NCBI GenBank assembly: GCA_964460245.1
Contig: CAYWTL010000001.1
Coordinates: forward strand, 56-64,055
DNA length: 64,000 bases
Source of the DNA: an uncultured Syntrophaceae bacterium
Lineage (GTDB): Bacteria > Desulfobacterota > Syntrophia > Syntrophales > Fen-1087
Direction: 5' to 3'
The notes below the pieces were generated by a model. The model had not been told where the DNA came from and made no database searches. It saw nothing but the letters and a program-made list of their open reading frames with translations. The position numbers and the translations under genes are program-made. Shown here piece after piece: positions 41,531 to 52,129 of this stretch. Numbering within the stretch: position 1 is the stretch's first letter; the number at the start of each line of letters is the position of its first letter.

Positions 41531-42361
41531 TCAATCGTTTATTTCGATGAGCTTTTTTCCCCGCGGCGGTTTTTTGTTATCCGGCCGCGGCCGTTCACGG
41601 GATGCGCAATCCACGATCCGCTTTCGAAGGGCCTCCGCATCGCCCCGGCCGACCAGTTCCTTCAGGTCCCGCAAGTTTTTCTCGAAGCGCCGGATCACCT
41701 CCGGGATGTCCGGGTTGCCCATGATGATGCCCGCGTAGAGCCCGGGGCTGCCGCCGAAGACCTTTTCGATCATCTTCAGCCGGGCCCGGAATGTCGGGGT
41801 GGAGAACTTTTCCAGCTCCTTCGGATCCATCCCGGTCTCGTGGAGCGTCAGTCCCATGACGACCGTGTCGAGATGGGTCAGTCCCTGGACGATGGCCATC
41901 ATCCGGTCGTGGCGCTCCGGCGTCGTCTCGATGACACGGGCCGAATGTTCCCGAAACAGCCCCGCGAGCCAATCCAGCCATTTCCGGCCCCGGCCCGGGC
42001 ACAGCACGATGTTCTGTCCGGCGATGGACAGCACATCCGGCCCGAAGAGCGGGTGGCAGCCAACGACCTCCGCCGTCGAAGCCTCCAGCATGGCCCGGAC
42101 CGGTTCCCTTTTCAGGGACGTCAGGTCCATGAGCAGGCCGTCGCCCCGGACATGGGGCCCCGCCTGCCGGATCACGTCCGGAGTGGCTGCGATCGGGACG
42201 CTCACGATCAGGATGTCGCTCTCCCGGGCCATGGCGGGCAGGTCCGGCGCCGACGCCCTTCCCGCCGTCCGGACCGGGAATCCCGCGACCCGGAAAAAAT
42301 CCGCGAACCAGCGGCCGATGCCGCCCGTGCCGCCCACGATGCCGATGCGAATCTTGCTCAT
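41531..42361 (-). CDS. tyrA: Prephenate dehydrogenase
   Basis: The sequence is [13 protein letters not shown]......G.......VGCHPLFGP...TPE.HD..MA.VQ.LTH. The ATG overlaps the aroC stop (ATGA). Confidence 0.8.
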
Positions 42362-43413
42362 GCGCCGATGGCCCTCTGTCTCAGCAGGTGGTCGGCCAGC
42401 ACGATGCCGACCATGGCCTCGCAGACCGGGAGAATGCGGGGGATGACGGACACGTCGTGCCGCCCCCGAATCGAGAGCGTGACCGGGGTTCCGGTTTCAT
42501 CGATCGTCTCCTGAGGTCTGGAAATGGACGGTATGGGTTTGCAGGCCACGCGCAGGACGATGTCGCTGCCGTTGGTGATCCCCGCCAGGATGCCGCCGGC
42601 ATGGTTCGTCCGGAAGCCGTCCGGCCCCAGGGCATCGTTGCACGCCGAGCCCGTCATCCGCGCCGCCGCGAAGCCCGCGCCCACCTCCACGCCCTTGACC
42701 GTTCCGATGCTCATCAGCACCTTGGCCAGGTCGGCGTCGATCTTGTCGAAGACCGGCGCACCCAAGCCGGCGGGGCACCCGCTGACGACGACCTCGACCA
42801 CGCCGCCCAGGGAATCGCCGCGTTTCCTCGCCCGCTCGATCCTCCGTTCCATCTTCCCGGCGGCCTCGGCATCCGGGCAGCGCAGCGGATTGCTCTCCAT
42901 CTCCGCCGGCGAAAACTTCCGGGCGGCAATGCCCCCCAGCTCCTTCGTGTAGGCGACCATCCGGATGTTCTCCCGCCCCAGGATTTTTTTCGCGATGGCG
43001 CCCGCGGCCACGCGGCCCGCCGTTTCCCGGCCGGAGGCCCGTCCGCCGCCCCGGTGATCGCGAATGCCGTATTTGCGCTGATAGGTGAAGTCCCCGTGCC
43101 CCGGCCGGAAGACCGAACGAAGATCCTCGTAATCGTCGCCGCGGACGTCCCGGTTCCGGATGATGAGGGAGATGGGGGTCCCCGTGGTTTTCCCCTCGAA
43201 TACGCCGGACAGGATCTCCACCCGGTCCGCCTCCCGGCGGGCGGTCGACGTGGAAACCGCCTGCGGCCTCCGCCGGTCCAGCTCCCGCTGAATATCCGTC
43301 TCGCTCAGGGGGATGCGCGGGGGGCACCCGCCCACCACCGCGCCGATGGCCGGTCCGTGGGATTCCCCCCACGTGGTGACCCGAAAGAGTGTTCCGATGG
43401 AATTGCCTGACAT
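42358..43413 (-). CDS. aroC: Chorismate synthase
   Basis: The sequence is [35 protein letters not shown] lies 7 nt upstream of the ATG at 43413. An alternative GTG at 43431 overlaps the aroK stop. Confidence 0.9.
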
Positions 43414-43427
43414 GGCCGCTTCCTTTC

Positions 43428-43952
43428 TCACCGCATGGTGTGCTTCATCGCTGCGCGGATCTGCGCGGCGATCTCTTCGACCGTCCGCTCCCCGGTCTCA
43501 ATGGCCAGGTCGGCCAGCGATCGGTAGAGGGGGGTCCTTTCCCGCAGCATCCGCTCCGTCTCCGCGGCCGTCCCGCCGTTCGAAAGCGCGGGGCGCTGGC
43601 CGTCACCGCCGCAGCCGGCCTCCAGCCTTCGGATAATGGCATCCGGCTCGGCCGAAAGCCAGACGAAGAATCCGTTCTTCTTCAAGATGGCCGCGTTTTC
43701 CCGATCCACAACCGTCCCCCCGCCGATGGCGATGACGCCCCCGTCGATACCGGCCAGTTCCCGGACCGTCTCCCTCTCCGCGGCGCGGAAGGCCGGCCAG
43801 CCGCCGGCGCCGACGATCTCGGCCACCGTCCGGCCGGTCCGCCGCAGGATCATTTCATCGGTGTCGTAAAAGGGGACCCGCAGCATGCGGGCCAGCATCC
43901 TTCCGACGGACGATTTGCCCGTGCAGCGGTACCCCATCAGGACGATGTTCAT
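43428..43952 (-). CDS. aroK: Shikimate kinase
   Basis: The sequence is [20 protein letters not shown]...F.DTD. The ATG at 43952 overlaps the aroA TGA (ATGA). An alternative ATG lies at 43961. Confidence 0.85.
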
Positions 43953-45217
43953 CTCCGCCACTTTTCCAGTTCGTTCCAGAAGCCGGGAAAGGACTTGCCG
44001 ACGCAGGCCCGGTCCGCGATGCGGATTCCCGGAACGGCAAGTCCCAGCACGGCGAAGCTCATGGCGATCCGGTGGTCGCCGTACGTCTCCACCTCCGCGC
44101 CGTGCAGGCGGGCGCCGCCCTCGACCACGATGCCGTCCTTCCGCTCCTCCGCGCGGGCGCCGACCCGCCGAAGCTCGCTGACCAGGGCGGCCAGACGGTC
44201 GCTTTCCTTCACCCGCAGGTGCGCGACGTTCCGGATCACGGTTCGGCCGCGGCGGACCGCGGAAAGCGCCGCCAGCGTCGGCACCATGTCGGGCATATCG
44301 CCGAGATCGAACGCGAACGGGCCTTCCCGAAGATCCCGCCCGGTCACCCGGATCCCGCGGTCCGATGACTCGACCTTCGCCCCGAGCCTCTCCAGGACGG
44401 CCAGCAGGCCGGCATCTCCCTGCAGCGTCCGGGCATCCACGTTCTCGACCCGCACCGTTTCCCGGCAGAGGGCGGCCGCCAGGAAGAAGTAGGAGGCGGA
44501 GGAAAAGTCCCCCTCGATCGAGCAGGTGATTCCCCGGTATGCCTGCCTTCCCCGGACGCGGTACCAGCCGGGCCCCTCGGCAGCGGCCTCGACGCCGAAG
44601 TCCCTCATGGCGGCGATCGTCATGTCCACGTAGGGCTGCGAGGGAACGCGCCCCCGCACCTCGATCGCGCAGTCCCGCTTTGCGAGCGCGCCGCAGATCA
44701 GCAGCGAGGAGATGTACTGGCTGCTGTCGATGTTCGCAAGGACGGCCCGGCCCCCGGGAATGCCGCGGGCGCGGATGATCACGGGAGGATAGCCCGTCCC
44801 GTCCCGGGTGCCGGCATCGACCCCGAAGGATCGCAGGGCCTCCGTCAAGGGTCCGATCGGCCGCTCGCAGAGCCGCCGGTCACCGGTCAGCACGAAGTCT
44901 CCCCGGCCCAGGGAAACGATGCCGGCCAGGAGCCGAATGGCCGTGCCGTTGTTTCCCAGACGGATCTCCCGGTCCGGGTTGGCGATGTCCCCGGCCGTAC
45001 CCCGCACAATCAGGTCTTCCCCCCGAAACTCGATCCCGGCGCCGAGCAGCCCGAGACCGCCCATGAGATGTTCCGTGTCTTCCGACCGCAGGGCGTTTTT
45101 CAGCGTGGACTCCCCCTGCGCGAGGGCCGCCAGGACGAGGGCCCGCTGGGTGTAGCTCTTCGAGCCGGGAACCCGAACCGGCCGGTCGAATTTCCCGATG
45201 GTCCCGATCTCCGTCAC
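43949..45217 (-). CDS. aroA: 3-phosphoshikimate 1-carboxyvinyltransferase (EPSP synthase)
   Basis: The sequence is VRVPGSKSYTQRALVLAALA.GEST..N.L.SEDT. The GTG start at 45217 overlaps the aroE TGA (GTGA). The 652-aa extended ORF runs through aroE and was rejected. Confidence 0.85.
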   Translation of the reverse strand: MTEIGTIGKFDRPVRVPGSKSYTQRALVLAALAQGESTLKNALRSEDTEHLMGGLGLLGAGIEFRGEDLIVRGTAGDIANPDREIRLGNNGTAIRLLAGIVSLGRGDFVLTGDRRLCERPIGPLTEALRSFGVDAGTRDGTGYPPVIIRARGIPGGRAVLANIDSSQYISSLLICGALAKRDCAIEVRGRVPSQPYVDMTIAAMRDFGVEAAAEGPGWYRVRGRQAYRGITCSIEGDFSSASYFFLAAALCRETVRVENVDARTLQGDAGLLAVLERLGAKVESSDRGIRVTGRDLREGPFAFDLGDMPDMVPTLAALSAVRRGRTVIRNVAHLRVKESDRLAALVSELRRVGARAEERKDGIVVEGGARLHGAEVETYGDHRIAMSFAVLGLAVPGIRIADRACVGKSFPGFWNELEKWRR

Positions 45218-46014
45218 CGCTCCTCCAGCCTCTCCATGACCTCCGCCCGCATCCGCGCCAGGGGCGGCTCCATTCCCGTCCAGAGCCGGATCTGCTCGGC
45301 CCCCTGACGGACGAACATCCCCACCCCGGAAAGGACGGCGCATCCGGCCTCCCGCGCCTCCCGCAGCAGCCTCGTTTCCGGCGGGTTGTAGATGACGTCG
45401 ACAACCAGCCCGAACCGGTTCAGGATGTCCGGGCCGACCGGCGACGCGTCCGTTTCGGGAAACATTCCGACGGGCGTCGTGTTGATCAGGCACTCTGCCC
45501 GGACGTCCCCGATTTCGCCCGGCGGCAGAAAGCGGCAGTGGAACTCGGCGGCCAGCGCCTCCGCTTTCGCGACGGACCGGCCGGCCACCCAAGGAATCCC
45601 GCCTTCCTTCCGAATCCCGAATACCGCCGCCCTCGCCGTCCCTCCGGTTCCGAGGATGATGAAATTCCTCCCGTCGATTTCGGTGCATTCCCGAAGGCTC
45701 TCGACCAGACCGAGCCAGTCCGTGTTGTGCCCCAGAAGCCTGCCGTCGCGGTTCGTGACCGTGTTGACCGCGCCGATGATCCGGGCGCTGCCGTCCATCC
45801 CGTCCAGGTGGCGCAGGATATCGCTCTTGAAGGGAAGGGTCACGCTCGCCCCTCGAATGTCCATCTCCCGGATTCCGGCAACCGCCTCCGCCGCACCGTT
45901 CACGCAAAATGAAAGGTACCGCGCCTCGATTCCCATCTGTTCGTATGCGGCATTGTGCATCAGCGGCGAAAGGCTTTGGCCGACGGGGTTTCCGAACAGG
46001 GCGTACGTCTCCAT
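45214..46014 (-). CDS. aroE: Shikimate dehydrogenase
   Basis: The sequence is YALFGNPVGQSLSPLMHNAA....G....Y........NVT.PFK...GHNTDW.G. Confidence 0.85.
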   Translation of the reverse strand: METYALFGNPVGQSLSPLMHNAAYEQMGIEARYLSFCVNGAAEAVAGIREMDIRGASVTLPFKSDILRHLDGMDGSARIIGAVNTVTNRDGRLLGHNTDWLGLVESLRECTEIDGRNFIILGTGGTARAAVFGIRKEGGIPWVAGRSVAKAEALAAEFHCRFLPPGEIGDVRAECLINTTPVGMFPETDASPVGPDILNRFGLVVDVIYNPPETRLLREAREAGCAVLSGVGMFVRQGAEQIRLWTGMEPPLARMRAEVMERLEER

Positions 46015-46015
46015 G

Positions 46016-46708
46016 CTATCTCCCCGCCTCGTGCCGCAACATTTTCAAAAGGGCTCGCATCTCCCGGACCGTCCACTGTCCGGGGGCCGACGCTTCGCCG
46101 TCGTCCAGGGCGGCGTAGCTGATCCGGGACCCGAAAAGCGGCGCGAGCGCCCTGCTGGGGCGGCCCTGCTCGCCCATACAGAAGGCGATGACCGCCTGTC
46201 CCTTTCTGCGGGCGCCGGCCAGAAGTTGCAGCACTCGAAGGTTGTCTTCCGGAGCCATCGCCAGGGTGACGATCTTGGCAATGTCCGCGCCGCTTTCGAA
46301 ACAGTCCTCCAGCCATCCTTCGAGCGTTCGTTCCGAAGGCGTTTCCCGAAAATCGTGGCGGGAAACGATCAGCCGCACGCGGCCCCGGCGGGTCCGGGCA
46401 GCCCGGAGCAGTTCGTCCTTGAGGTCGGCCTCCGTGCTCGACTCGACATCCACGTAGTCTGCGTCGAGCAGTGCCGCCTGCGTGAGCAGACCCACCCGCG
46501 CCCTTTCGCTCCCCCTGAAGCGCCCCCCCTCGTCCCGGCGGCGGCTGGTCACGATGATCTTGCCGCGGCGCGCCCCGATCAGCCTCCCCAGGTTCGGGTC
46601 CCGCATGCCGTCGATGCGCAGCTCCACGAGATCGGCCAGCGCAAAGGCCCGCCCCATTTTGGCCAGCATGGCCTCCTCGCTTTCCGCCATCACCGGGATG
46701 CAGATCAT
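46016..46708 (-). CDS. aroD: 3-dehydroquinate dehydratase, type I
   Basis: The sequence is MICIPVM......DLVELR.D...ADIAKIV..A......CMGE.G..SR. The ATG at 46708 overlaps the pheA stop (ATGA). Confidence 0.8.
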   Translation of the reverse strand: MICIPVMAESEEAMLAKMGRAFALADLVELRIDGMRDPNLGRLIGARRGKIIVTSRRRDEGGRFRGSERARVGLLTQAALLDADYVDVESSTEADLKDELLRAARTRRGRVRLIVSRHDFRETPSERTLEGWLEDCFESGADIAKIVTLAMAPEDNLRVLQLLAGARRKGQAVIAFCMGEQGRPSRALAPLFGSRISYAALDDGEASAPGQWTVREMRALLKMLRHEAGR

Positions 46709-47787
46709 GGTCGTTCCTCTCCGCGAGGGTAGGACCCCAGGACCTTGACAAAGGCCGCCTTCTTTTCGAGCTGCCGCAGGCAGGAGCCGATTCGCTTCTC
46801 GGCGCTGTGGCCGGCGAGGTCCATGAAGAACAGGTACTCCCACATGCGGTCCCGCACGGGATAGGATTCGATCCGGGTCAGGTTGACGCGGGCGCTTGCG
46901 AACGGCCCCAGGGCCAGGTGCAGCGCGCCCGGCGCATGCGCCGTTCCGAACAGGACGGAGGTCTTGTCCCGCCCCGTCGGTTCCGGCTTCCCCCTCCCGA
47001 TGACGACAAACCGGGTCGTGTTCAGGGGATGGTCTTCGATCCCGTCGGCAAGGATGCGCAGACCGTAGCGGGACGCGGCGGCCCGGCTCCCCACGGCCGC
47101 CCCCTCCGGGTCTTCCAGCGCCTTTCCGGCAGCCGCGGCGGTGCTGTTCACTTCGATCAGCCGGCACTGCGGCAGGTTGGCCCGCAGCCATTGCCGGCTC
47201 TGGGCGATCGCCTGCGGGTGTGAGTAGACCCTCCTGGGCGATTTCCGCCGGCCGCGCGGGGTCAGCAGGGCATGGCGGATATGGACGAAAATTTCCGCCT
47301 GGAGCGCCAGCGGCGTCGCGACCAGCCGATCCAGCGTCGCCTTGACGGAGCCCTCCGTGGAATTCTCGATGGGCACGATCCCCAAGCGGCCGGAGTCCCG
47401 CTCCGCCGCGTCGAAGACCTCCGCGATGGTGGCGGCGGGAGACAGCTCTGCGCCCTTCCCGAAATGGGTTAGTGCCGCCGCATGGCTGAAGGAAGCCTCC
47501 GGGCCGAGGTAAGAAACGACCGGCGCGGCCTGGAGCGCCCGGGACGCCGAAAGGATCTCCCGGAAAATATCCGCCAGCGCCGCCGCGGGAAGCGGCCCTT
47601 CGTTGATCTCCTCGAGACGGCGGTAAACGAGGCTTTCCCGGGCGGAATCGTACACCGGCCGGCCCGCCGCCTGCTTGACCCGGCCGATCGCAAGGGAAAG
47701 CGCAGATCGCTCGTTGAGCAGCCGGACGATCCTTTCGTCCTTCGCGCTGATTTTTTCTCTCAGCCTCCGCATCCGGTCTTCGTTCAT
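46705..47787 (-). CDS. pheA: Bifunctional chorismate mutase / prephenate dehydratase (P-protein)
   Basis: The N-terminal chorismate mutase helix motif LR..I...D..I..LL.ER is present. The dehydratase part is VSYLGPE.SFSH.AA, and an ACT-like C-terminus (ESYP) follows. The ATG overlaps the aroB stop. Confidence 0.9.
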   Translation of the reverse strand: MNEDRMRRLREKISAKDERIVRLLNERSALSLAIGRVKQAAGRPVYDSARESLVYRRLEEINEGPLPAAALADIFREILSASRALQAAPVVSYLGPEASFSHAAALTHFGKGAELSPAATIAEVFDAAERDSGRLGIVPIENSTEGSVKATLDRLVATPLALQAEIFVHIRHALLTPRGRRKSPRRVYSHPQAIAQSRQWLRANLPQCRLIEVNSTAAAAGKALEDPEGAAVGSRAAASRYGLRILADGIEDHPLNTTRFVVIGRGKPEPTGRDKTSVLFGTAHAPGALHLALGPFASARVNLTRIESYPVRDRMWEYLFFMDLAGHSAEKRIGSCLRQLEKKAAFVKVLGSYPRGEERP

Positions 47788-48878
47788 CCCCTCATCCCCT
47801 CGATCGTTTCCCGGATCAGCGGTTCGGGCACGCCCCCGTTCATGAAGGGCATCCCCGCCCGTTTGAGCAGAACGAAGTGAACCGCCGCGCCCTGCTTCTT
47901 CTTGTCCTTTTTCAGCCGGGTCAGGATCGCTCCCCCGTCCAGGCCTTGCGGGACACGGTCGGCAAGACCGAGTTTCCGAATGAGCGACAGGATCCGTTCA
48001 CCCTCTTCCTCCGGGAGATACTTCATCCGCACCGAAATGCGAACCGCGGCCGCCATGCCGATGGCGACGGCGTCCCCGTGCGACAGGCGGAACCCCGACT
48101 CGGCTTCAACGGCATGGCCGATGGTGTGGCCGAAGTTGAGAATCCGGCGGAGCCCCGTGTCCCTCTCATCCAGTTCGACGATCCCCTTCTTGATGCGGCA
48201 GCATTGCAGGACCAAGCCCTCCAGAAAGTCCGCATCGCGCCGCAGCAGCGCCTCCGCCTTCCCGTCGAGGAGGTCCAGAATCTCCGGAGATTCGATGACC
48301 CCGTACTTCACGATCTCGGCCAGGCCGTTTCGAATCTCCGCTTCCGGCAGCGTTTTGAGGAAGGAGACGTCCGAAAACACCGCCTTCGGCTGATGAAACG
48401 TTCCAATGTAGTTCTTTCCCGCCTCCGTGTCGACGCCGGTTTTGCCCCCGATGCTGCTGTCGACCTGGGCGAGCAGCGTCGTGGGAATCTGGATGCAGGG
48501 AATCCCCCGCATGAAGATCGAGGCGGCGAAGCCGGCGACGTCGCCCGTAACGCCCCCGCCCAGGGCGATCACGGCGGATGTCCGGTCCGCTCCCAGCCCG
48601 GCCATCTTTTCCAGGATTTCGAGGCAGGTCTGCACGTTCTTCGACGCCTCGCCTCCCGGAAATACGATCAGATCGGCCTTCAGATCCATCTGCCGGAGGA
48701 GTTTGAGGACCTCGCCCCCGTAGAGCGACGCCACGCGGGAGTCGGAGACGATCACGTACCGCGCTGCCCAGTTGTTCTTCGCCAAGAGCAGCCCGGCGCG
48801 GTCCAGAATGTCGCGGCCGACATGAATGTCATAGCTTCTCACCGTTTTCCGGTCCAGGTTCAGTCTGATTTTGTTCAT
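47784..48878 (-). CDS. aroB: 3-dehydroquinate synthase
   Basis: The sequence is GGE..K.......ALGGGV.GD..GF.A....RGI...[18 protein letters not shown]. The ATG at 48878 overlaps the DAHP synthase TGA (ATGA). Confidence 0.9.
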
Positions 48879-49903
48879 TGCAGCACCCTGATTTCCTCTC
48901 TCATGATTTTTTCCATGACCCGGACTTCCTCCATCATCTGGTAAAACTGCTCCGGCCGCAGCGACTGGGCGCCGTCCGAAAAGGCCTTCTCGGGCTCCGG
49001 GTGGACTTCTACGATCAGGCCGTCCGCCCCGACGGCGACGGCGGCGCGGGTCAGCGGAATCACGTACCGGGAGTATCCGGCGGCATGGCTGGGATCGATG
49101 ATGACCGGCAGATGGGTCAGCTCCTTCAAGACGGGAACGGCGCTGATGTCCAGGGTATTGCGCGTCGCCGTTTCGAAAGTCCGGATCCCCCGTTCGCAAA
49201 GGATGACCTGCTCATTCCCCGCCGACAGGATGTATTCCGCCGACATGAGCAGCTCCTCGATGGTGGTCATCAGGCCGCGCTTCAGCAACACCGGCTTTTT
49301 CGCGCGGCCCACCTCCTTCAGCAGGGCGAAGTTCTGCACATTCCGGGCGCCGATCTGCAGGATGTCCGCGTAGGACTCCACCAGATCCACATCCGTCGTG
49401 TTCATCACTTCCGTCACGACCGGGAGTCCCGTTCGCTCCCGGACCTTCTTCAGGAGTTTCAGGCCCTCTTCGGCCATGCCCTGAAAGCTGTACGGCGACG
49501 TCCGGGGCTTGAACGCCCCCCCGCGCAGGATATGGGCGCCGGCCTTCTTCGCGACATAGGCCGATGCCATGAGCTGTTCCTCGCTTTCCACGGAGCAGGG
49601 GCCGGCCATGACGATGAAATCCGGCCCACCGATGGCCAGGTCACCGACGCGGACGACGGTATTGCCCTCCCGCACCTCCCGGCTGGCCAGTTTGTAGGGT
49701 TTGAGGATCGGCATGACCTTGTCCACGCCGGGGAGGAATTCGGCGGACTTCAACTGGGCCTTCCCCCGGTCATCCCCCACGGCGCCGACGATGGTGCGCT
49801 CCACGCCGCGGGACAGGTGCGCGCTGTAACCGACGGATGCGATCCACTCCACGATCCGGTCGACCTGGGCATCCGTCGCATTTTTTTTCATAATGATGAT
49901 CAT
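48875..49903 (-). CDS. aroF: DAHP synthase (type I-beta, Thermotoga-like, with an N-terminal ferredoxin-like regulatory domain)
   Basis: The sequence is GPCSVES.EQ......[22 protein letters not shown]...IGARN.QNF.LL.....KPVLLKRG. The ATG at 49903 has GGAGGA 7 nt upstream. It is the first gene of the supraoperon. Confidence 0.9.
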
Positions 49904-49962
49904 ATCTGTTTCCTCCAAAAAGAAAGGGCCGTGGAAAATCGGCTCCCACAGCCCCGAAACGC

Positions 49963-50000
49963 AAAAAGCCATGGGTAGCGTTTTTCGATCTACCCATGGC
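49963..50000 (-). terminator. Intrinsic terminator/attenuator between the aromatic-rich leader ORF and aroF
   Basis: The minus strand reads GCCATGGGTAG-ATCGAAAAACG-CTACCCATGGC (11-bp perfect stem) followed by TTTTTG. It lies 23 nt after the leader stop and about 60 nt before the aroF ATG. Confidence 0.75.
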
Positions 50001-50023
50001 TCCGTTTGATGATTTAAATTTCT

Positions 50024-50125
50024 TTAAGTCCTCCTGAGCGTCGGGCAGACCGGTGCATAAAAATAGTAATAGCCGTACCAGCTCTTAAAATTTCTTCCGG
50101 TTTGACCGCTTTTGAAGCCCGACAT
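50024..50125 (-). CDS. Aromatic-residue-rich leader peptide (33 aa) upstream of the aro supraoperon
   Basis: My own translation of the minus strand gives MSGFKSGQTGRNFKSWYGYYYFYAPVCPTLRRT*. Seven of eight consecutive residues are W/Y/F (WYGYYYFY). GAGGAG lies 12 nt upstream of the ATG at 50125, and the TAA stop is at 50026-50024. The ORF is too short for the supplied ORF track. Confidence 0.65.
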   Translation of the reverse strand: MSGFKSGQTGRNFKSWYGYYYFYAPVCPTLRRT

Positions 50126-50246
50126 GCTGCTGCGAATCTCCTCACTTTTACTCTTTGCCCTGCAGGCAACCACAATCAGGGGGCCCTGTCAAGGAAAAAC
50201 TTCCTGAAATAATCTCCGTCACGCGGCGGCGGGGAACGGTCGCCGG

Positions 50247-51068
50247 CTACTTCACGGTGTATCCGCGCCCGTCGAGGCAGGCCCCCATGGCCCTCTGGTA
50301 CTCGACGCGCTTCTGGCCCGCCGGATCCGCCAGATCCCCCTCGCGGGGCCGGGTGGGGTCGTAGCCGGTCTGCTGGACGGCCCAGGCATGGCACTCGTAG
50401 CGGTCCTTCGCCAGCTGCTCTTCGCTCTGGCCCTGACGGGGGTAGACGAAAAGCTGATCGATGGATGCCTCGATTTCCGGAGGCAGCGTTTCACTGGCCT
50501 CGCCGCTCGGCGGCGCGACGACGGCGTAGCCGTTGGGCACGCGTGTATAATAAACCTCATTGGCGTAGTAGTAGGGGATCCCGCCGAACCAGACCGTCGC
50601 GTAATAGGGCGGTAGGTAGGGAACGACCACGCCGAAAGGGGGCGCGATGACGGCAAAGCGGGGCCCGTACGGACGGTACCAGACGCCCCCCCGGTAATAA
50701 TAGCGCGTCCCGCCGTGCACGATCACCCGGTGGTCGCGGGGAAGCCGCTGGATGTAGCGGCCGCGCACCGGATAGGAACGGTCATGGCGATAGCGCGAAT
50801 CCAGGTAAAGCCCCGGCCGAATCGGGCCCGGAGGCGGCGCCTTTAAATTCCGGGGAGGCGGCGCCTGGCTTCCCCGCGGCGCCATGCGCGGCCCGGGAGG
50901 CGGAACCGGGCGCGACGACGGTTCCCGGTACTGGCGGAACTGCTCGGAACGGGGCCCGCGTTCAGCCGCATTCGCCGTCTGTAAGAGCGGGTACAGCAGG
51001 ACCCCGGTCAGCAGGGCCGCCGCCATGCCGAGCGTAAATCTCACGTTTCTGCTAAATAAAAGTGACAT
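50247..51068 (-). CDS. Secreted Pro/Tyr-rich hypothetical protein with a conserved C-terminal Cys-containing domain
   Basis: The signal-peptide-like N-terminus is LGMAAALLTGVLLYPLLQTANA-AE. YYY/GxWY repeats are present. The C-terminal YPRQGQSEEQ..DRYECHAWAVQQTGYDP...YQRAMGACLDGRGYTV is shared with the next gene. Confidence 0.6.
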   Translation of the reverse strand: MSLLFSRNVRFTLGMAAALLTGVLLYPLLQTANAAERGPRSEQFRQYREPSSRPVPPPGPRMAPRGSQAPPPRNLKAPPPGPIRPGLYLDSRYRHDRSYPVRGRYIQRLPRDHRVIVHGGTRYYYRGGVWYRPYGPRFAVIAPPFGVVVPYLPPYYATVWFGGIPYYYANEVYYTRVPNGYAVVAPPSGEASETLPPEIEASIDQLFVYPRQGQSEEQLAKDRYECHAWAVQQTGYDPTRPREGDLADPAGQKRVEYQRAMGACLDGRGYTVK

Positions 51069-51110
51069 GTGCGTATCCTCCTCAAAATCGAATCCGGATT
51101 CCCGCTGCCG

Positions 51111-51677
51111 TCACTGTACGCTGTAGCCCCGGCCTTCGAGGCACGCGGACATGGCCCTGCGGAAATCGAACTCCTTTGCCTGGTAGTGGACATCCAGTGC
51201 TCGGTCTCGCCGGGAGTAGGCTTCCTCCATCTGCTGGGCATACTGCTGACGGGACGCATCCGATACGGCGCCGGTAAACGCCCCGCCGGCCGCCCCGATC
51301 AGGGCGCCCTCCCCGGCATGTCTCGGCCCTCCGATCAGCGCGCCGAGCACCGCGCCCGCCACGGCCAGCACGGCCGTATCATGACCGGGCGGCGGCATCG
51401 GCACGACCCGGACACGCTGCACGGGCGGAACCTGGGACCGGCTGGGGTCGAAATGCGTCTGCTTCACGGCCCAGTTGTAGCACTCGTAGTGGTCCCGGGA
51501 CTGGCGCTCCTGGCTCTGGCCCATCTTCGGGTAGAAGTAGAGCTGGGCCATGCGGGCTTTCGGGGCCATGCCGGAATCCGGCGGGACAGGTCCCGCAACC
51601 GGATGATAAGACGCCGGATAGCACCCGGCCAGCGGAAGCACGGTCAGAAAAAACAGGAGACCCAGACCGGCGCGCAT
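51111..51677 (-). CDS. Lipoprotein with a glycine-zipper segment, paralogous to the preceding gene's C-terminal domain
   Basis: The start is at ATG 51677 (MRAGLGLLFFLTVLPLAGC, with lipobox LAGC). The domain YPKMGQSQER..DHYECYNWAVKQTHFDP ... FRRAMSACLEGRGYSV is interrupted by GALIGGPRHAGEGALIGAAGGAFTGA. Confidence 0.6.
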   Translation of the reverse strand: MRAGLGLLFFLTVLPLAGCYPASYHPVAGPVPPDSGMAPKARMAQLYFYPKMGQSQERQSRDHYECYNWAVKQTHFDPSRSQVPPVQRVRVVPMPPPGHDTAVLAVAGAVLGALIGGPRHAGEGALIGAAGGAFTGAVSDASRQQYAQQMEEAYSRRDRALDVHYQAKEFDFRRAMSACLEGRGYSVQ

Positions 51678-52129
51678 TACCGGGTGACCGCCTCGATGCC
51701 TGTCGGCCCTTTCCTCGATTCTCCGAATGCCCATCGCTTTCCTCCCCATTCGTCAAACACCGGTCATCGCCACCGCCGAAAACCGGGTGCACCGCCGGCT
51801 TTGCGAGGCTTCCCGTATTTTATAATACCGCACACATTTTATTGCAAGAGGGATGCCAATCGCGGCACTTGAAACGCAACCGCTCGGATTGATGAAGGGT
51901 TGATCCATTCGAAGGCCTTCCGGTCCAGCCGCTGCGGTTTCCGGCGTGGATAAATATTACCCGGTTTCCGTATCCACTTGTGAAAAAAATACACACCTTG
52001 CGGGGGCGGGTCGCACCGACCCGCATCGATTCCCCGCACGCGTTTCGACGCTTGCGTTGGCGGTTCTTTTTGAATATGATTCTCTGCCGGAATCGACAAA
52101 ATCCCATATTCGCCGAAAAGAGGACCGCC

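Follow-up and report, generated by a model that had tools for sequence, protein, structure and literature searches.

In the pheL-pheA and trpL-trpEDCBA operons of Escherichia coli, a short leader open reading frame (ORF) with clustered codons for the end-product amino acid lies ahead of an intrinsic terminator that precedes the first structural gene. The leader RNA has the mutually exclusive pairings 1:2, 2:3, and 3:4, and the state of the system is read out through charged tRNA (PMC11802643, PMC3082878). The closest functional precedent for the locus described here is aroR of Corynebacterium glutamicum, a mixed aromatic leader (Phe-Tyr-Phe) directly before the operon of aroF, which encodes 3-deoxy-D-arabino-heptulosonate 7-phosphate (DAHP) synthase; as far as it is described in PMC11802643, which relays Neshat et al. 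2014, it acts by leader-peptide attenuation, as had been predicted (PMC4046766). We found that every feature of such an attenuator that can be predicted at the level of sequence (leader ORF, clustered codons, potential for the alternative pairings, and terminator) recurs upstream of aroF in a 64,000-nucleotide (nt) stretch of contig CAYWTL010000001.1 from an uncultured Syntrophaceae bacterium of the order Syntrophales, the whole of which is called the window below. An earlier note on this DNA had proposed that an aromatic-rich ORF and a terminator form an attenuator of the aro operon. Comparative and thermodynamic evidence leads us to regard the element as most likely a classical leader-peptide (ribosome-mediated) transcription attenuator of a nine-gene aro operon. 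The proposal is supported by the conserved ORF, covarying terminators, a conserved antiterminator, gene content, and a sister leader with three Trp codons; it has to be amended in that there are two terminators and that a mixed leader before aroF is not new.

Results

An Aromatic-Rich Leader ORF Is Conserved Upstream of aroF

The leader ORF of the window lies on the minus strand and encodes MSGFKSGQTGRNFKSWYGYYYFYAPVCPTLRRT; its 33 codons and the GAGGAG upstream are as the earlier note had them (coordinates of all features are collected in Table 1). Seven of eight consecutive codons specify Trp, Tyr, or Phe (one Trp, five Tyr, and one Phe), forming the kind of codon cluster expected before an operon that makes chorismate, Phe, and Tyr. 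This is the sole site with at least six aromatic residues per nine among the ∼128,000 nine-residue windows of the six-frame translation, and the run is therefore not an effect of composition in a window of 59% G+C. The description of the ORF as unannotated also held: an exact look-up of the leader peptides of the window and its relatives found no called protein in a collection of 15 billion sequences, and the peptides are uncalled in the contigs retrieved by AroF.

Homologues of AroF number in the thousands, mostly from Syntrophales and other Thermodesulfobacteriota metagenome-assembled genomes (MAGs). Loci were gathered by a genome scan (including a Syntrophales MAG, Smithella sp. SCADC, and Syntrophus sp. 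GWC2), by a metagenome scan, and from the contigs encoding 11 chosen AroF proteins. The two scans, bounded by peptide patterns, yielded 5 close genome loci and ∼10 close metagenome loci, and the AroF-encoding contigs yielded 13 more. The set analyzed here comprises 27 sequences, namely the window and 26 Syntrophales-type relatives with upstream DNA (AroF 72 to 100% identical).

A leader ORF of 22 to 34 codons with a Shine-Dalgarno (SD)-like site occupies the same place in all 26 relatives, which makes 27 of 27 sequences with a short ORF that has its own SD and start in the leader of the biosynthetic operon. Conservation of ORF and hairpin upstream of aroF, on which the earlier note had made its proposal depend, holds at 26 of 26 loci. 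The genes further upstream are unrelated from one relative to another (DUF6515, hisD, efp, ilvD, a CoA-transferase, a HAD hydrolase); the leader therefore goes together with aroF. Only the leader frame is open throughout the ORF span in all 27 sequences, the other two each having stops in 20. Leaders contain one to three Trp, two to five Tyr, and zero to five Phe codons, with Trp and Tyr present in all and Phe in 26 of the 27. The aromatic residues differ in their order, and the N-terminal half is variable (e.g., NFSYWFSYYYSF, NNAYYYWFYTYF, and NFFWFYYFY), and the tail V-C-P-x-L-R-R-T is conserved, at the nucleotide level too.

Two Covarying Terminators Separate the Leader from aroF

After the leader stop, a 23-nt spacer leads to terminator 1 (regions 3 and 4, paired as 3:4), a perfect stem of 11 base pairs (bp) in which GCCATGGGTAG pairs with CTACCCATGGC, with an 11-nt loop and UUUUU (−19.9 kcal/mol). 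This is the hairpin and U-run on which the earlier note relied, and its placing of the aroF SD and ATG 60 nt beyond was likewise correct. It overlooked a second hairpin that sits within those 60 nt. Terminator 2 (regions 5 and 6, paired as 5:6) has an 11-bp stem, GGGCUGUGGGA/UUCCACGGCCC, followed by UUUCUUUUU (−19.4 kcal/mol), and the single hairpin terminator of the earlier note has accordingly become the first of two. In a terminator scan of the window, terminator 2 was the sole minus-strand terminator flagged at the leader; terminator 1 was missed because its loop exceeds the scan’s limit of 8 nt.

In a 26-sequence alignment of the leaders, the two terminators are jointly 93.5% paired, compared with 29 to 53% when the partner is slid. 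Terminator 1 is 94% paired and terminator 2 is 93% paired, each with five pairs that show compensatory changes. Ten of the 22 terminator pairs have changed on both sides, GCCATGG/CCATGGC giving way to GCCAGGG/CCCTGGC or GCCGCGG/CCGCGGC, and the column pair 140:164 splits into AU in 13 sequences and GC in 13. For four of five measures of terminator pairing, none of 500 column shuffles reached the observed value. U-runs follow both stems in nearly all relatives; one relative, L085, is without the second hairpin. An intrinsic terminator between leader ORF and first gene is thus found twice, each time with a G+C-rich stem, a U-run, and compensatory changes.

The Leader Tail Is a Predicted Antiterminator Strand

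The antiterminator, which the earlier note could not find by eye, is predicted to form between region 2, the leader codons P-V-C-P-T-L-R (CGGUCUGCCCGACGCUCAG), and region 3. Region 2 lies inside the ORF, 6 nt past the last sensor codon. Its consensus, GGUCUGCCC(A/G)(U/A)CGCU(U/C)AG (codons V-C-P-x-L-R), complements CU(A/G)AGCCAUGGGUAGAUC, that is, the 5′ flank, the entire 5′ arm, and part of the loop of terminator 1, and this 2:3 pairing explains why the loop begins with a conserved GAUCG. Comparison of the leaders indicates that the conserved V-C-P-x-L-R peptide tail is really a conserved RNA strand. Across the alignment, 79 to 89% of region 3 cells are paired compared with 25 to 44% when the partner is slid, and a 12-pair 2:3 core taken together with the 4:5 helix (discussed below) is 88.8% paired compared with 27 to 44%. 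The full 19-bp 2:3 helix is 79% paired and has seven covarying pairs; in L170, for example, GGUCU/AGAUC is replaced by AUUCU/AGAAU, and the column pair 36:77 is UA in nine sequences, CG in five, and GC in three. Only one position in region 2 varies freely, the third of the Pro codon, and its pairing with region 3 is kept (A-U, G-U, or G-C).

Region 2 has a second potential partner near the 5′ end. In minimum free energy (MFE) folds of the 5′ part, region 1, made up of the start codon and the next two codons (AUGUCGGGC in the window), pairs with the 3′ half of region 2 (GCCCGAC); in most relatives, GAUGGGCAGA pairs with UCUGCCCAUC. The two segments changed in a coordinated way in the lineage of the window, region 2 from CCCAUC to CCCGAC and region 1 from GAUGGG to GUCGGG. 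Region 1 was placed by its best register, which biases pair counts, so 1:2 was judged by duplex energies against shuffles and by register. By RNAduplex, the window’s 1:2 duplex has −15.6 kcal/mol compared with −9.3 ± 2.7 kcal/mol for shuffles. Region 1 is the best within-leader partner of region 2 in 25 of 26 sequences, and the best ungapped register takes in the start codon in ∼19 of 27. The duplex lies at or below −13.7 kcal/mol in 17 of the 27 sequences, and in 16 its energy is matched by at most 1 of 200 shuffles. An anti-antiterminator suited to an untranslated leader is thus found in most relatives and is weak in L001, L166, and L085. The automatic choice of start codon is probably wrong in L089 and L174; these have an in-frame AUGGGCAGA or AUGGGUAGA located 27 nt farther upstream, which suits the promoter distance as well as region 1.

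Modeling of the alternative folds, which the earlier note had suggested as a check, gave a switch between antiterminator and terminator 1 when the fold was restricted to RNA beyond the ribosome. In the window, the energies are −16.5 kcal/mol for 1:2, −14.5 kcal/mol for the 2:3 core, and −25.6 kcal/mol for the composite antiterminator. When only the RNA 3′ of the ribosome was folded, a ribosome stalled with W16, Y17, Y19, Y20, or Y21 in the A site left the antiterminator as the MFE structure of the nascent RNA, and for stalls from W16 to Y21 it was still the MFE structure once region 4 had been transcribed (−28.1 kcal/mol). A ribosome that has reached the last two sensor codons or moved past them covers region 2, which allows terminator 1 to form. 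In these folds, the antiterminator thus excludes the terminator in a manner that depends on ribosome position. Family medians are −26.4 kcal/mol for the antiterminator state compared with −22.75 kcal/mol for the terminator 1 state with region 2 blocked. Equilibrium MFE folds, whether of the whole leader or with a masked ribosome and the 5′ RNA left free, were set aside as uninformative for a kinetic switch; they drew 1:2 around the ribosome and always contained both terminators.

Two further features of this segment were recorded. The 5′ arm of terminator 1 contains AUGGGUAGA (window 49998–49990), near-identical to the leader start AUGGGCAGA of many relatives, a resemblance that arises because both complement region 2; it opens a 75-codon ORF (49997–49770) that overlaps the aroF start and is probably meaningless. 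Two codons before the leader stop stands a tandem AGG AGG (Arg-Arg, and a perfect SD-like AGGAGG; window 50030–50035, alignment columns 37–42), which is kept in most, not all, relatives and of which the first bases alone join the antiterminator helix. It may be a ribosome pause or simply rare codons. Reinitiation was considered and rejected, the next AUG being ∼35 nt away and the motif missing from several relatives.

A Sister Leader with Three Trp Codons Precedes trpE

A second leader ORF, encoding MNRNAAMTMNWWWHNAQEGFIRR, lies between tyrA and trpE on the same strand and is followed by two hairpins with U-runs. We built a covariance model, R1, from the aro leaders, running from region 2 through terminator 2. 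It matches the trp leader end to end, region-2 segment included, at 40.4 bits (E ∼3e-7 in 578 kb). The start-codon region of the trp leader, GAUGAACC, pairs with its region 2, GGUUUAUC, and the energies are −18.0 kcal/mol for 2:3, −18.3 kcal/mol for the first terminator, −16.9 kcal/mol for 4:5, and −14.6 kcal/mol for the second terminator. The match indicates that the trp and aro leaders are one scaffold with the same 1:2, 2:3, 4:5, and two-terminator logic. Their sensor codons match the genes downstream, with Trp, Tyr, and Phe codons before the common pathway and the Phe and Tyr branches, and three Trp codons before the Trp branch. The paired leaders appear to be a natural specificity control and, at the level of sequence, argue for function more strongly, in our view, than any other single finding. 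The six-frame translation contains just one other WWW (...SRIRNWWWNR, then a stop; plus strand, ∼30521), probably an out-of-frame chance occurrence.

Complementarity of the Two Terminators Suggests a Possible Relay

The 3′ arm of terminator 1 (region 4) complements the 5′ arm of terminator 2 (region 5), with 90% pairing in the alignment and a family median duplex energy of −18.9 kcal/mol compared with −9.4 kcal/mol for shuffled region 5. We infer a six-segment scheme like that of the his attenuator, in which 1:2, 3:4, and 5:6 (off) would alternate with 2:3 and 4:5 (on); all five pairings are possible, and the potential to form them is conserved. Control of the second terminator through 4:5 is, on balance, slightly favored.

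The principal competitor to that relay is a scheme that confines attenuation to terminator 1, makes terminator 2 either an independent fail-safe (constitutive or leaky) or a 5′ stabilizing hairpin, and explains 4:5 as a by-product of duplication. Each hairpin does have its own U-run, and regions 3 and 5 are alike (GCCATGG versus GGCCATGG/GGCTGTGG), so the 4:5 pairing comes free. The window’s 4:5 helix, at −10.5 kcal/mol, is also far weaker than terminator 2, and L164 and L165 have an internal mismatch in it (column pair 110:141). We nevertheless consider independence of terminator 2 unlikely. An unregulated second terminator would cap induction, the likeness of the two terminators is kept across divergent relatives along with the pairing just described, and the trp sister leader has a 4:5 helix more stable than its second terminator. 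A fail-safe also accords poorly with L085, which dispenses with terminator 2 entirely. In three distant loci (L007, L009, and L011), moreover, AUUUAAAU stands after the first hairpin where a U-run would be expected, and 5:6 is the only terminator; 4:5 there comprises 12 bp at −22.5 kcal/mol, and 2:3 has −26.2 kcal/mol. A leader of this kind can control termination only via 4:5.

Related Leaders Occur Beyond Syntrophales

The model R1 finds every Syntrophales-type locus at 88 to 142 bits, with L085 at 61. It finds L007, L009, and L011 weakly (23 to 37 bits), gives partial matches upstream of aroF in L010, L014, and L093, and has no match in the remaining AroF loci. The three weakly matched loci (L007 2290–2500, L009 1580–1793, and L011 2290–2500) carry a distant version of the scaffold with the leader MRQSSISRFFWFYFNFSPSAGGA, ending in RFFWFYFNFSPSAGGA and a stop. 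L010 (1420–1678) and L014 (2240–2500) come from high-G+C MAGs, one labeled Methylomirabilales. Their leader begins MHSTRWVWRFTFRGVCPVG (in full, MHSTRWVWRFTFRGVCPVGAGTGRR), and it contains the GUCUGCCCC (V-C-P) strand as in the aro leaders, complementing a terminator arm. Its aromatic codons, which include no Tyr, alternate with others, and two hairpins with U-runs follow.

More widely, an aromatic-rich short ORF lies upstream in 64 of 154 AroF loci from many phyla compared with 3 of 154 on the reverse complement, a fraction that is only indicative because the sample contains near-duplicates; terminator-like hairpins follow the ORF in 61 of the 64. Human-gut Clostridia account for many of the 64. 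Human-gut and other Clostridia (L117–L160) have leaders devoid of Trp (MKSIFVFAYYYYFTMDS, MTSVMFFTYYYFTMHA, MNRSFYFAYAYYFTMLQ, and MNSMITVYNYYYFYFEESIS), placed ∼127 to 130 nt 5′ of aroF and followed by a single strong terminator (L131 at ∼1240–1500; also L117, L149, L121, and L147). These Clostridia leaders match neither Rfam nor R1, and from their sequences look like a separate, apparently uncatalogued attenuator family. Two delta-proteobacterial loci have a cobalamin riboswitch (RF00174, 86 to 95 bits; L055 376–546 and L093 956–1122) on the strand opposite to aroF, upstream of and divergent from the aroF leader; it belongs to the neighboring divergent gene.

Readings That Dispense with Attenuation Fit Poorly

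A structured RNA sensor, be it a T-box binding uncharged tRNA or a metabolite riboswitch to which the ORF is incidental, is very improbable. The stretch GAGCUGGUACGGCU loosely resembles the T-box core GGUGGUACCGCG, a likeness that finds no support. Rfam 15, T-box (RF00230) included, gave no family at E ≤ 1 in 49000–51500 and none at gathering score in the whole window or in the leaders of 20 related loci. Within the same limits for the window, the families Trp_leader, Phe_leader, His_leader, Leu_leader, Thr_leader, and leu/phe leader were likewise without a match. Nor is the GGUAC stretch conserved; relatives have in its place whichever aromatic codons they use, and on these two grounds the T-box candidate (the GGUAC-like stretch together with AGAGUA near the 5′ end) was rejected. 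T-boxes do control aro genes in Firmicutes, according to work cited in PMC1262725. What is conserved here, in contrast to an RNA sensor, is an open frame with SD, start, and stop that keeps the class of its residues rather than their sequence.

That the ORF encodes a functional aromatic-rich micropeptide, with hairpins that merely end its small transcript, has as little in its favor. Its C-terminal V-C-P-x-L-R-R-T is conserved, and some attenuator leader peptides act in trans (peTrpL, PMC7298713). The tail, however, is kept at synonymous positions (GUC UGC is almost invariant), and where a third position varies, pairing with region 3 is retained, which points to a constraint at the level of RNA. 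Neither the N-terminus nor the order in which aromatic residues follow one another is constrained, and the leader always lies directly upstream of aroF, whatever stands further upstream. Least credible of all, and already contradicted by conservation, is that ORF and hairpin came together by chance, short ORFs being abundant in any sequence, or that the hairpin is the upstream gene’s terminator: the aromatic run is unique in the 64 kb, such ORFs before aroF far exceed those on the reverse complement, the upstream genes differ, and a conserved −35 box stands between them and the leader.

Putative Promoter, Operon, and Neighboring Genes

A perfect TTGACA after a T-tract, a feature that the earlier note had overlooked, lies 55 to 69 nt 5′ of the leader start in 26 of the 27 sequences. 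In relatives, it is usually followed, 17 nt on, by a TGn-extended −10-like hexamer nearer to TATAAT than the poor TTGCCT of the window, and this poor −10 accounts for the failure of a promoter scan of the window to call a minus-strand promoter at the leader.

The operon aroF-aroB-pheA-aroD-aroE-aroA-aroK-aroC-tyrA contains all seven steps of the shikimate pathway plus the Phe and Tyr branches; aroK is hidden by a 200-amino acid ORF filter. To judge by their spacing, the nine closely packed or overlapping genes are probably cotranscribed. The genes trpE-G-D-C-F follow downstream after a 290-nt gap that holds a promoter-like TTGACA and leader of their own. The earlier note’s view of the common pathway from aroF through tyrA as the controlled unit agrees with this gene content, and we refine it to an operon of nine genes including aroK, with the trp genes under their own promoter-like site and putative Trp attenuator.

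Two tandem genes upstream of the leader (minus strand, 50247–51068 and 51111–51749) share the C-terminal motif Y(P/F)xxGQSxExxxxDxYECxxWAxxQTxxDP...AMxACLxGRGYxV. The first matches Pfam DUF6515 in related contigs; in the window, no NCBIfam family matched.

Table 1. Positions of the aro leader, the operon behind it, and the trp leader in the window
Feature	Position	Strand	Detail and basis
−35 box TTGACA, putative promoter of leader transcript	50187..50192	minus	After T-rich tract; strand read
Extended −10-like TGG TTGCCT	50164..50172	minus	17 nt past −35 box; weak, predicted from sequence
SD-like GAGGAG of leader ORF	50138..50143	minus	12-nt spacer; strand read; SD-like motifs also before relatives’ leaders
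Leader ORF, 33 codons + TAA	50024..50125	minus	ATG at 50125, TAA 50026–50024; strand read and ORF list
Region 1	50117..50125	minus	MFE folds; complements 3′ half of region 2
Sensor codons UGG UAC GGC UAU UAC UAU UUU UAU (W Y G Y Y Y F Y)	50057..50080	minus	Strand read
Region 2, antiterminator 5′ strand	50034..50052	minus	Alignment columns 20–38
Region 3, antiterminator 3′ strand	49986..50004	minus	Alignment columns 75–93
Terminator 1 (3:4)	49963..50000	minus	Stem 50000–49990 with 49978–49968, UUUUU 49967–49963; strand read and fold
Terminator 2 (5:6)	49917..49954	minus	Hairpin 49954–49926; fold and terminator scan
aroF SD and start	49901..49916	minus	GGAGG 49916–49912, ATG 49903–49901; strand read
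Operon aroF to tyrA	41531..49903	minus	NCBIfam matches and ORF maps
aroF, type I-beta DAHP synthase with N-terminal FXD domain	49903–48875	minus	NCBIfam
aroB	48872–47784	minus	NCBIfam
pheA, chorismate mutase/prephenate dehydratase (CM/PDT)	47787–46705	minus	NCBIfam
aroD	46690–46016	minus	NCBIfam
aroE	46014–45214	minus	NCBIfam
aroA	about 45241–43949	minus	NCBIfam
aroK, shikimate kinase, 177 amino acids	43961–43428	minus	NCBIfam; overlaps aroA and aroC by a few bases
aroC	about 43431–42358	minus	NCBIfam
tyrA	42361–41531	minus	NCBIfam
TTGACA before trp leader	∼41533–41528	minus	Sequence read
trp leader ORF	AUG 41451, UGG ×3 41421–41413, stop 41382–41380	minus	Sequence read
trp leader first hairpin + U-run	41351–41316	minus	Sequence read
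trp leader second hairpin + U-run	41294–41262	minus	Sequence read
trpE ATG	41236	minus	Sequence read

Discussion

Computation establishes that the ORF exists and is conserved, that both terminators covary, that 1:2, 2:3, and 4:5 have a conserved potential to pair, and which genes lie downstream; from these, we infer leader translation and ribosome stalling. Transcription would start ∼30 nt 5′ of the 33-codon ORF, and a translating ribosome would meet the one Trp, five Tyr, and one Phe codons within eight codons. If charged tRNA-Trp, tRNA-Tyr, or tRNA-Phe were scarce, the ribosome would stall at these sensor codons and leave the next 19 nt, region 2, free. Region 2 would then pair with region 3 as soon as the latter was made, blocking terminator 1, and the freed region 4 would pair with region 5, blocking terminator 2 and allowing RNA polymerase to proceed into aroF. 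With all three tRNAs charged, the ribosome would move over region 2 to the stop, 3:4 and 5:6 would form, and transcription would end at either U-run. In a leader that is not translated, region 1 would hold region 2, and both terminators would form.

Several points weigh against attenuation of this kind. The evidence is comparative or thermodynamic throughout. Covariation in 2:3 and 4:5 is modest, because these segments are highly conserved, and the complementarity of 4:5 would be automatic if terminator 2 were a diverged copy of terminator 1. Even when region 2 is available for pairing, 18 of 26 relatives have terminator 1 as their MFE structure, and equilibrium folds of the whole leader always show both terminators, which means that the presumed choice between folds must be made kinetically, as it is in known attenuators. 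If the ribosome paused at the stop codon, 11 nt at the 5′ end of region 2 would be left exposed, and the window’s leader has a long SD–ATG spacing (12 nt) and a poor −10 box. Finally, experiments on the C. glutamicum aroR attenuator, in the account given in PMC11802643, showed an effect of limitation of Phe, not Tyr, so it would be premature to take for granted that all three amino acids are sensed.

We tentatively suggest a broader reading, in which a modular six-segment scaffold, with two genuine terminators coupled by 4:5 and region 1 at the start codon, would have undergone duplication inside a single gene cluster, a swap of sensor codons being enough to reprogram it. The Trp/Tyr/Phe version would form an OR gate with three inputs that controls the common pathway and the Phe and Tyr branches, the version with three Trp codons would serve the Trp branch, and distant versions of the V-C-P type would exist in other Thermodesulfobacteriota and in Methylomirabilales-like MAGs. 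If this holds, the 1:2 pairing would also shut off further translation of the leader.

The attenuator provides a testable regulatory model for aromatic amino acid biosynthesis in Syntrophales (Smithella, Syntrophus, and relatives), slow-growing syntrophs whose gene regulation is almost unstudied. It would represent an uncatalogued family of cis-regulatory RNA, given the lack of an Rfam match and the absence of its leader peptide from the 15-billion-protein collection. Mixed and all-Trp leaders on one scaffold would form a clean natural case of specificity set by sensor codons alone, and two coupled terminators suggest a tight off state that does not sacrifice the on state, a property that could serve synthetic attenuators. 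Aromatic-rich leader ORFs before type I-beta DAHP synthase genes appear common in several phyla, including human-gut Clostridia, and are apparently unannotated there.

To judge by the Rfam result, the Syntrophales leader has no sequence or structure similarity to the E. coli pheL and trpL leaders. Its sensor mixes three amino acids and is situated after region 1 and before region 2, not within region 1 as in E. coli. The leader start codon falls in region 1, region 2 is contained in the ORF 5′ of the stop, and there are two terminators. The his attenuator of Salmonella and E. coli, reportedly described by Johnston et al. in 1980, has six segments in which A:B, C:D, and E:F alternate with B:C and D:E. 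Shared with it would be a six-segment relay to pass the position of the ribosome to a distal terminator, and L007, L009, and L011 have exactly such a layout. In his, however, only E:F terminates, whereas 3:4 and 5:6 of the Syntrophales leaders both have U-runs, and the sensor is aromatic rather than His.

Among leaders before aroF, aroR of C. glutamicum differs, on the basis of its published description as seen through PMC11802643, in having no Trp, in belonging to another phylum, and in preceding a much smaller operon. The uORFC-13-1 element of Acholeplasma, a predicted upstream ORF with a terminator found exclusively upstream of aroF, has been proposed to sense aminoacylation through translation speed (PMC8632094). 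As described there, it occurs in Acholeplasma and environmental sequences only, its U-run codes for at least one Phe, and neither Trp or Tyr codons nor a double terminator are mentioned. Terminator/antiterminator predictions before large aro/tyrA/pheA clusters, including that of Desulfovibrio vulgaris, were made by Song, Bonner, Jensen et al. in 2005 (PMC1173090, Table 7); these are generic structure predictions that include neither a leader peptide nor sensor codons and cover no Syntrophales. In the literature searched, which largely excluded subscription papers, we found no description of the element for delta-proteobacteria or Syntrophales. Control of aroF by a leader peptide is not new, and the proposed mechanism is of the classical trpL, pheL, and hisL type and is mechanistically expected. 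What sets the Syntrophales variant apart, as far as its sequences indicate, is a run of sensor codons for all three aromatic amino acids, two terminators that may well be coupled by a relay, a region 1 at the start codon, and a sister element with a different sensor.

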